Below are positions 2,350 through 2,864 of a stretch of DNA of 64,000 nucleotides, piece after piece. A model generated the notes under the pieces. The model saw only the letters and a program-made list of their open reading frames with translations, was not told the origin of the DNA and ran no database searches. Positions within the stretch are counted from its first letter, which is position 1. Every line of letters begins with the position of its first letter. Source of the stretch: Curvularia clavata. Taxonomy: Eukaryota. The translations under genes and the position numbers were made by a program. The stretch covers positions 4,650,001 through 4,714,000 of the forward strand of contig CP089276.1 of NCBI GenBank assembly GCA_023920165.1. Direction: 5' to 3'.

Positions 2350-2864
2350 TATTAGGAAGAAAAAACAGGAGCATCGCCAGAATTCGAGGACGACGCCAGG
2401 GCGTCTAGAGAATCCAAAGTGCTCCACATAACAGGCGAGAACCCTACTAACGCGTTGGCCGCGGGGCAGTTCAGGGACTTTTATACATCCACGTTATTAC
2501 TACCTTCGCGTAAGGAATTCGCCAAACACATAGTCTTCTTCGTAGCACGTTCTTCAGCCTGCTTTAAAATCTTCTTATTTCGTATCAACCGCGAAATTAC
2601 TTAAGCCAACAATTACTTATCTTTATCCACTTTCTTTTAATACTCTTTACGAGTCTTGTCTAACGACACCTACGACATATTAACACATAGATAACCCAGA
2701 TGAGTGCACTTAGAGCACTTTAAACGCTTGCCATCAACTTCAGACATCGCGACGCACTAACAGTTATTCGCAAAATAATAATCGCAGGGGACGGGCGCGG
2801 GGAGACCATTACGACGAATCTTAAGAGTAAGACGAAGATGTTCTTTAGACCTAGGGGCAGATAT
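2350..2864 (-). pseudogene. Antisense accessory ORF of Gypsy element 1: Zn2Cys6-like motif plus coiled coil, RIP-inactivated
   Basis: Minus-strand translation (M)SAPRSKEHLRLTLKIRRNGLPAPVPCDYYFANNC*CVAMSEVDGKRLKCSKCTHLGYLCVNMS*VSLDKTRKEY... gives C-x2-(C)-x6-C-x12-C-x2-C-x6-C at 2685-2786. Five of the six Cys codons are intact. The 3' end is approximate. Confidence 0.7.

Follow-up and report, generated by a model that had tools for sequence, protein, structure and literature searches.

The DNA analyzed here (the window) is a stretch of 64,000 nucleotides (nt) from Curvularia clavata (GenBank assembly GCA_023920165.1, contig CP089276.1, positions 4,650,001 to 4,714,000 of the forward strand). 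Its first 3344 bases are the 3′ part of a plus-strand Ty3/Gypsy retrotransposon (copy 1 herein) that is heavily altered by repeat-induced point mutation (RIP), and an antisense open reading frame (ORF) lies between the chromodomain end of its pol gene and the polypurine tract (PPT) beside its 3′ long terminal repeat (LTR) (Table 1). This ORF is almost certainly a real gene borne by the element and inactivated by RIP in the window, where it is a dead relic without functional consequence. Retranslation of the minus strand reproduced exactly the cysteine pattern that the initial annotation had reported for positions 2685 to 2786, C-x2-(Y)-x6-C-x12-C-x2-C-x6-C, which in residue numbers is C27-x2-Y30-x6-C37-x12-C50-x2-C53-x6-C60 (translation of 2999 to 2301, with codon 27 at 2786-2784); around the motif, the frame translates as PCDYYFANNCxCVAMSEVDGKRLKCSKCTHLGYLC. 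The long charged segment that had been noted behind the motif is predicted to be a single helix (residues 65 to 120).

When the frame was read through its six internal stops (codons 36, 65, 76, 84, 88, and 128, entered as X), 31 proteins in a collection of 5.8 billion matched at an E value of ≤0.01, most of them 157 to 181 amino acids long, and the best match (E = 2.6e-78) was 74% identical over 100% of the query. A wrong-frame control starting one base off, at 2863, had no match among 1.84 billion representative proteins, so the similarity of the antisense frame lies far beyond chance. A profile search for the family returned 256 proteins at E ≤ 0.001. The named sources among the matches listed were all Dothideomycetes (Pleosporales, Mycosphaerellales, and Myriangiales), indicating that the gene is spread through this class, and a protein atlas search with the family returned only Ascomycota clusters. 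Family proteins are 160 to 195 amino acids long (typically ∼170) and comprise an N-terminal helix, the six-cysteine motif, a helix of ∼55 residues, and an acidic/aromatic tail (FSPxMWSTL). When 17 intact relatives were aligned, C27, C30, C37, C50, C53, and C60 proved invariant, as were about 30 further columns. UniRef labels some members "Zn(2)-C6 fungal-type domain-containing protein"; gene callers and UniRef thus treat genes of a retrotransposon as host genes for "Zn(2)-C6 domain" proteins.

The gene is a regular part of such elements. Scanning metagenome contigs with the family alignment yielded 30 loci (designated with L numbers), and each of the 30 has, on the opposite strand and tail-to-tail with the antisense gene, a Gypsy pol with its C-terminal part, in elements whose pol is 35 to 75% identical to that of locus L005. 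Pfam searches of the pol strand found reverse transcriptase, RNase H, integrase, SH3-like, and chromodomain matches, with gag further on where contigs cross a collapsed LTR. The convergent ORFs overlap at their 3′ ends by ∼40 to 90 nt in most elements. The antisense frame was open across the whole matched span in 20 of the 30 loci; the other 10 were broken and had a G+C content of 20 to 44%. In L016, a complete element bounded on both sides by LTRs of 348 bp (TGTTAC...GTAACA), the antisense gene lies just past the PPT; its start is 95 nt from the LTR edge, compared with 56 nt in the window and ∼55 to 110 nt inside the PPT/3′ LTR boundary in intact elements generally. In the window, residues 273 to 1052 of the intact L005 pol match positions 3 to 2342 at 52% identity (tblastn), and the pol end near 2360 is extrapolated from the 6 remaining pol residues. 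The assignment of the ORF to a Gypsy element, between chromodomain and PPT, thus stands, with 30 loci behind it and with both L016 and the window mapped for LTR and PPT.

The damage to the window copy carries the signature of RIP. Natural intact relatives, in place of a deRIP consensus, served as the reference. Twenty-nine residues of the window copy occur in none of its five closest relatives, and C>T or G>A changes alone account for every one of the 29, including the start codon (ATG>ATA), the second cysteine (TGT>TAT), and all six stops; the reverse transitions explain none of them, and C>A or G>T changes explain 4. One-directional changes of this kind are those expected from RIP. Codon 30, TAT (Tyr) in the window, is a cysteine codon in all 17 aligned intact relatives, bearing out the earlier proposal that it is the RIP product of TGT. 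Copy 1 has a TpA/ApT index of 1.42, a (CpA+TpG)/(ApC+GpT) index of 0.65, and a G+C content of 35%, compared with indices of 0.76 and 1.24 for positions 44001 to 64000 of the window and 0.99 to 1.07 and 1.20 to 1.31 for the adjacent pogo-like transposons.

In elements spared by RIP, the antisense gene is under purifying selection. We aligned 15 intact copies by codon, leaving out the tail that overlaps pol, and estimated the ratio of nonsynonymous to synonymous substitution rates (dN/dS); among the 105 pairs, 43 were dropped because dS was saturated (pairs with dS below 3 were usable). The ratio was below 0.5 in all 62 usable pairs (median, 0.21; range, 0.04 to 0.36). Compared on the same elements, the antisense gene (dN/dS, 0.05 to 0.36; mean protein identity, 59%) resembled the integrase region of pol (0.05 to 0.28) and pol itself (65%). 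The initial annotation had suggested that un-RIPed relatives be searched for an open frame with a dN/dS below 1 and for antisense transcripts; the first is found in these pairs, and the second is seen, in relatives of the window copy, as spliced RNA with the GT..AG polarity of the ORF strand.

Relatives of L011 occur in leaf-litter metatranscriptome runs. In two of the four runs compared with L011, one contig skips 57 to 58 nt right after the antisense stop, with GT..AG ends on the strand of the antisense gene (run X10, depth 11.8, side 30; run X2, depth 25.9, side 24, with one extra letter). In genomic L011, the antisense stop is followed by a textbook fungal intron: TGA-G, then GTTCGT...CCTAAC...CTAG, then GT. 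On the pol strand, the ends of this intron would read CT..AC, and hence the spliced RNA is antisense to pol. Relatives of the window element therefore make spliced RNA antisense to pol. In nearly all copies, the antisense stop lies 1 to 2 nt before the 5′ splice site, so splicing leaves the antisense protein unchanged. A third joint in L011 (1212 to 1311, TC..GT) was disregarded as noncanonical, and the short contigs had no poly(A) or poly(T) ends. Depth along L011 in the RNA runs seemed greater over the antisense gene than over pol, but contig depth is no measure by which parts of a stretch can be ranked, and we base no conclusion on it. A TATAAG-like box stands ∼35 to 60 nt before the antisense ATG in most copies, between PPT and ATG and thus inside the element, not in the LTR; the initial annotation had proposed transcription from the 3′ LTR side. 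For the window copy, an intron is predicted from its motifs and from homology, its 3′ half being homologous to the 57-nt intron of L011.

The 57-nt GT..CTAAC..AG stretch is absent from L012 and L013 (compared with L011) and from L006 (compared with L007), and L004 also appears intronless. L004 and L006 are near-full-length sequences (6.1 to 6.5 kb) that lack the 57-nt intron and hence 19 chromodomain codons; they give no Chromo match although the SH3-like domain is present, and either their assembly followed spliced antisense RNA that was abundant, or the variants truly exist as DNA.

The window holds a second, full-length Gypsy element (copy 2) with a markedly different version of the gene, termed allele 2 herein. 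The two pol genes are 86% identical and colinear (copy 2 positions 23993 to 26306) up to position 2315 in copy 1 and 26306 in copy 2, and the LTRs are 93% identical from LTR position 230 on; the stretch between pol and the distal LTR (834 bp in copy 1, 956 bp in copy 2) is unalignable. Read through, allele 2 has 44 protein matches (best E, 3.3e-44), with the consensus C-x2-C-x6-C-x8-C-x2-C-x6-C, followed by a helix of ∼75 residues and an SPSTW motif, and with GSS at the end. A hidden Markov model of allele 1 run over the six-frame translation of the window found only positions 2355 to 2864, with the copy 2 allele at an E value of about 1, and a scan of viral contigs with allele 2 found no relative. 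The homology of the alleles became visible only after allele 2 relatives had been collected and compared profile to profile (hhalign probability, 96%; E = 3.9e-9; 77 columns; 27% identity). Judged from their sequences, then, two near-identical elements carry alleles almost unrecognizable to each other.

L011 and L007 form a similar mosaic, with pol 91 to 98%, the antisense gene 57 to 83%, the adjacent ∼200 nt of U3 (the LTR region next to the gene) 41 to 45%, and the remaining LTR 89 to 97% identical. The two mosaics (window copies 1 and 2; L011 and L007) indicate that the antisense gene and the proximal U3 are exchanged jointly, as a cassette. Of 11 elements, 8 have a gene-adjoining U3 with three to four copies of a lineage-specific 12-mer, above any of 40 shuffles, and many of the lineage-specific U3 motifs are palindromic. 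Beside the repeats (on their gene-proximal side by one account, following them by another) lies a conserved GTCACGTGAC with a CACGTG E-box, found at 27139-27148 in the copy 2 LTR and in the U3 of L001, L003 to L005, L007, L008, and L010 to L014; in copy 1, the corresponding position (3020 to 3035) has been RIPped to TTACGTAAT. From its sequence, this E-box is likely a candidate site for a host basic helix-loop-helix (bHLH) factor. CGG/CCG pairs in U3 showed no consistent pattern.

A second palindromic feature lies beside the PPT. Of 16 sequences, 12 have a perfect stem of at least 5 bp; among 3200 shuffles, a stem of 6 bp is reached in only 2.5%. In relatives, arms of 5 to 8 bp and variable sequence surround a TCCT or TCC center, and the palindrome lies 16 to 19 nt from the LTR edge where that edge is correctly anchored (window; L001 to L019, upstream of the antisense ATG). 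From element to element, the arm sequences vary while their complementarity is kept (GATTCG/CGAATC, GATCCG/CGGATC, AGGCTTG/CAAGCCT, CGCGATG/CATCGCG, and CTTTTCG/CGAAAAG); by reading of the arms, one position in L005 and L008 would be a T-G pair on the antisense-gene strand. It might form a hairpin, in RNA or DNA, that takes part in plus-strand priming; alternatively, a dimer might bind there.

Table 1. Features of the two Gypsy copies and their antisense genes in the 64,000-nt window
Feature	Position	Strand	Basis or remark
RIP-degraded pol of Ty3/Gypsy copy 1 (reverse transcriptase, RNase H, integrase, SH3-like, chromodomain end)	3..2360	plus	start truncated by window edge
Predicted 3′ untranslated region intron of the antisense gene, 103 nt	2247..2349	minus	GTAAGT 2 nt after stop; CTAAC...AG at 2262-2247; overlaps chromodomain codons
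Module unalignable with copy 2	2316..3149		antisense gene, PPT region, first 230 bp of U3
Antisense accessory ORF of copy 1 (allele 1; 170 codons, inactivated)	2355..2864	minus	stop codon 2354-2352; ATG>ATA at 2864-2862
Six-cysteine motif C-x2-C(Y in window copy)-x6-C-x12-C-x2-C-x6-C	2685..2786	minus	translation and alignment of relatives
Palindrome AAGCTT-gtcttt-AAGCTT beside PPT	2885..2902		copy 1
PPT AGGGAGGAGGAGGATAG	2903..2919	plus	layout same as L016 and copy 2
3′ LTR of copy 1, 425 bp	2920..3344	plus	TATTAT...TTAACA, RIPped form of TGTTAC...GTAACA; pogo-like DNA from 3345
Gypsy copy 2, full length	20601..27457	plus	LTRs about 20601-21023 and 27035-27457
Divergent allele 2 of the accessory gene, in copy 2	26296..26876	minus	RIPped, one frameshift, Cys1-3 now Tyr; stop 26298-26296
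57-nt GT..CTAAC..AG intron of allele 2	26294-26238	minus	after stop: TAA-G, then GTTTGT..CCTAAC..TAG

What the protein did in live elements has to be read from its architecture and from the company the gene keeps. In live elements, the gene lies antisense to pol and tail-to-tail with it, behind a TATA-like box, and ends before a short intron within the chromodomain codons. We propose that its product would bind zinc through the six cysteines and, according to structural models, dimerize through the long helix. It would then be a zinc-dependent, dimeric, sequence-specific DNA-binding protein made by the element and acting on the element's own U3; its acidic/aromatic tail, as we read the sequence, would suit an activator. 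In passages of a preprint on the LTRs of yeast Ty5, the factor sites named as most frequent are those for zinc-cluster and bHLH proteins (10.1101/2025.04.25.647736), which fits an LTR that combines a CACGTG box with sites recognized by a zinc-cluster factor. The U3 is proposed as the target because the gene travels as a cassette with the adjoining ∼200 to 230 bp of U3 in two element pairs and because that part of U3 holds lineage-specific repeats in most relatives examined. The DNA-binding mechanism by itself is put forward tentatively. A single figure that blends the near-certain element gene killed by RIP with this tentative regulator mechanism comes to roughly 0.6.

The cysteine spacing is the first argument for DNA binding. 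It matches the Zn2Cys6 pattern of PF00172, C-x2-C-x6-C-x5-12-C-x2-C-x6-8-C, in both alleles (x12 in allele 1, x8 in allele 2). In the AlphaFold2 models, a short helix at the N terminus is followed by a compact region with the cysteines and then by a single long helix (residues 65 to 120 in allele 1, 66 to 142 in allele 2). Foldseek searches of the PDB placed only Zn2Cys6 DNA-binding domains in the leading rows (10 with allele 1, 8 with allele 2; E, 0.9 to 3.0), among them Hap1, Put3, Pho7, Leu3, Gal4, AlcR, and Lac9, and VIA-align superposed the cluster at 1.8 to 1.9 Å over 32 to 35 residues (Z, 2.4 to 2.9), with 1.8 Å over 35 residues to Pho7. In Gal4-type proteins such as Gal4 and Ppr1, Lys/Arg residues between Cys2 and Cys3 contact DNA; in allele 2, this interval reads C-V-K-H/N-x-R-V-C and so carries K/H/R.

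Pairing of the helix is likewise predicted. A two-copy fold of residues 20 to 125 gave a pairing score of 0.51, compared with 0.00 for the best control; among proteins with solved structures, 21 of 30 same-chain pairs and none of 23 single chains attained the pairing mark. The runs share at least 78% of contacts and the partner pLDDT is at least 72, and the pass may reflect memory of solved coiled coils.

Several observations weigh against a Gal4-like regulator acting on U3. No member reached the Pfam Zn_clus cutoff of 21 bits (best, P0013 with 17.2 bits), Zn_clus rows at E ≤ 1 were obtained with 6 of 10 intact proteins, with 11 of 20 in set A1, and with only 1 of 25 in set A3 (allele 2), a profile search of all PDB sequences returned no Zn2Cys6 chain at E ≤ 10, and Foldseek found no PDB fold match at E ≤ 0.001. 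The models, which were made without zinc, have middling mean pLDDT values (67 for allele 1, 75.5 for allele 2), and the VIA Z values overall (2.0 to 3.4) fall in a range that the tool rates as common. Between Cys2 and Cys3, allele 1 reads C-F/L-x-x-x-x-x-C and is mostly nonbasic. The predicted homodimer is antiparallel, with contacts at i+j near 175 (79/96, 75/100, 72/103, and 86/90) and a center near residue 87; such pairing would hold the two clusters far apart, not side by side on one palindrome. The tie between the U3 repeats and the antisense gene rests on the two mosaics, and repeated motifs in U3 are usual for LTRs. Finally, the intronless L004, L006, L012, and L013 (JGI contigs) may be RNA-derived, or they may be DNA variants with a shortened chromodomain, 57 being a multiple of three. 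From the Gal4-type binuclear cluster of the initial annotation, then, the exact spacing holds and the models bear some resemblance to Zn2Cys6 domains, while the Pfam threshold, the PDB profile search, and the missing basic residues of allele 1 speak against it; its dimerizing coiled coil survives as a predicted homodimer, though an antiparallel one, unlike that of Gal4.

The same observations feed the alternative that survives best, namely, that the gene encodes a genuine accessory factor that does not bind DNA as a regulator, with the zinc motif being structural or binding protein or RNA and the antiparallel helices serving as a scaffold; its roles might be, for example, particle assembly, nuclear entry, chromodomain-linked integration targeting, or the countering of host silencing. 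The subthreshold Zn_clus scores, the nonbasic Cys2-Cys3 interval of allele 1, and the antiparallel dimer, unlike that of Gal4-type proteins, would all suit such a factor. So would a weak resemblance to DUF3716 (PF12511), a domain also described for genes in a fungal DNA transposon in passages of PMC8232023: rows at E ≤ 1 were obtained with 3 of 10 members (best, P0013 with 17.9 bits, under the 22-bit cutoff), and the weak matches (E, 0.003 to 0.3) cover residues 12 to 57 of P0013, P0023, and P0130, that is, the N-terminal helix and the first cysteines. We nevertheless consider this alternative somewhat unlikely, since the Zn2Cys6 spacing is exact in both alleles, allele 2 has K/H/R between Cys2 and Cys3, the top fold-search rows are solely Zn2Cys6 DNA-binding domains for both alleles, and the antisense gene is coinherited with part of U3.

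Two other explanations fare far worse. Antisense RNAs of retrotransposons are common regulators, and the antisense transcript overlaps the 3′ end of pol; the RNA itself might therefore be the functional product, for example, in copy number control or small-RNA production, with the ORF incidental. This is very improbable given that the dN/dS values below 0.5 were obtained from codons mostly outside the pol overlap, that the alignment shows no variation at the six cysteines and at about 30 other columns, that the frame is fully open in two-thirds of the loci (20 of 30) with the broken ones at low G+C (20 to 44%), and that alleles at 27% identity share one architecture. Equally improbable is a host gene fragment lying beside the insertion in the window or recently captured by it: Zn2Cys6 factors are the largest transcription factor class of fungi, so an ancient host origin is plausible, but position and orientation are constant in all 30 loci, across pol genes 35 to 75% identical to that of L005, and the gene lies inside the LTR pair and is present in both Gypsy copies of the window.

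A more specific version of the DNA-binding regulator can be formulated, which we regard as doubtful. The gene and the first ∼200 to 230 bp of U3 would form a matched pair, in which the dimeric zinc-cluster factor recognizes the lineage-specific repeats or palindromes of its own LTR, perhaps also the covarying palindrome beside the PPT, and recombination moves both together. If true, the element would possess a private transactivator or copy number switch, with a logic like that of retroviral Tax, Tas, and HBZ, and the long-unexplained antisense ORFs of such elements would gain a function. In any case, the recombination pattern points to a candidate target, the adjoining U3.

The surrounding DNA offers some further observations. 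Directly after the copy 1 LTR, at 3345-7506, lies a nest of pogo-like DNA transposons with two open ORFs of 632 and 525 codons (stop to stop) that match DDE_1 and helix-turn-helix domains, and one of these elements is bounded by terminal inverted repeats that match perfectly over 67 bp (3611-3677 and 5410-5476). With a G+C content of 50 to 51% and normal RIP indices, they look young and un-RIPped beside the thoroughly RIPped retrotransposon. Two LTR-like pieces of ∼450 bp (11605-12062 and 12230-12678) lie inverted to each other and are 90.6% alike and 76 to 80% like the Gypsy LTR. Among the metagenome loci, the final ∼25 bases of the L026 contig, which holds a RIPped element copy, are TTAGGG-type telomere repeats, and L028 (968-2758, minus strand) has a HET-domain ORF ∼750 nt upstream of the RIPped accessory gene, which is probably the flank of the insertion.

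For a fungal chromovirus, a gene placed in the same way and also antisense has been in print since 2011, according to passages of PMC7264820 and PMC8365987. The gene in question is brtn of the Boty-like elements (Zhao et al. 2011, Virology 417:248), also described in PMC4227169 and PMC5987419, and these passages agree with our family in depicting an additional gene that a chromodomain Gypsy element of fungi carries after pol, ahead of the 3′ LTR, on the strand opposite to gag-pol. The hosts differ, being Leotiomycetes for brtn and Dothideomycetes for the family described here; the comparison is one of descriptions, not of sequences, the brtn passages mention neither a zinc cluster nor a coiled coil, and none of the 120 matches listed in our profile search was named BRTN. 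In plants, the Gypsy elements RIRE2, Grande, Retand, and PvRetro13 carry antisense ORFs (aORFs) between pol and the 3′ LTR whose function is given as not known in passages of PMC7264820. As described there, they share with our family the position, the orientation, and a conservation comparable to that of pol; they belong mostly to nonchromovirus lineages, and no Zn2Cys6-like motif is reported for them in those passages. By the same source, such antisense ORFs downstream of pol have been recorded in Gypsy elements of both plants and fungi for decades, with "function not known." The family described here offers a handle on them: a small zinc-cluster-like protein with a pairing helix, many intact copies, purifying selection, and evidence for a spliced antisense mRNA. 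We found no paper on a retrotransposon-encoded zinc-cluster protein, in a literature search that mostly left subscription journals outside and is thus weak evidence of absence.

Comparison with single proteins points in several directions. The REP9 DNA transposon of Zymoseptoria tritici carries DUF3716 proteins, which passages of PMC8232023 describe as cysteine-rich and accessory; REP9 is a Class II element, and the likeness consists in the weak DUF3716 matches of 3 of 10 members given above, which hint at a wider class of transposon-borne cysteine-rich proteins. With the Gal4-type Zn(II)2Cys6 factors (PF00172), the family shares C-x2-C-x6-C-x(8 or 12)-C-x2-C-x6-C followed by a linker and a helix, which in the family is predicted to pair two chains, while differing from them in its length of 160 to 195 amino acids with no large regulatory domain, its antiparallel predicted dimer, and its scores under the Pfam cutoff. 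HBZ of human T-cell leukemia virus type 1 (HTLV-1) is a dimerizing basic leucine zipper (bZIP) transcription factor whose gene occupies the minus strand, with transcription coming from the side of the 3′ LTR. It has a bZIP and not a zinc cluster and belongs to a vertebrate retrovirus, so that the parallel is by analogy only, but in each case a retroelement would carry a spliced antisense gene for a small dimerizing nuclear factor.

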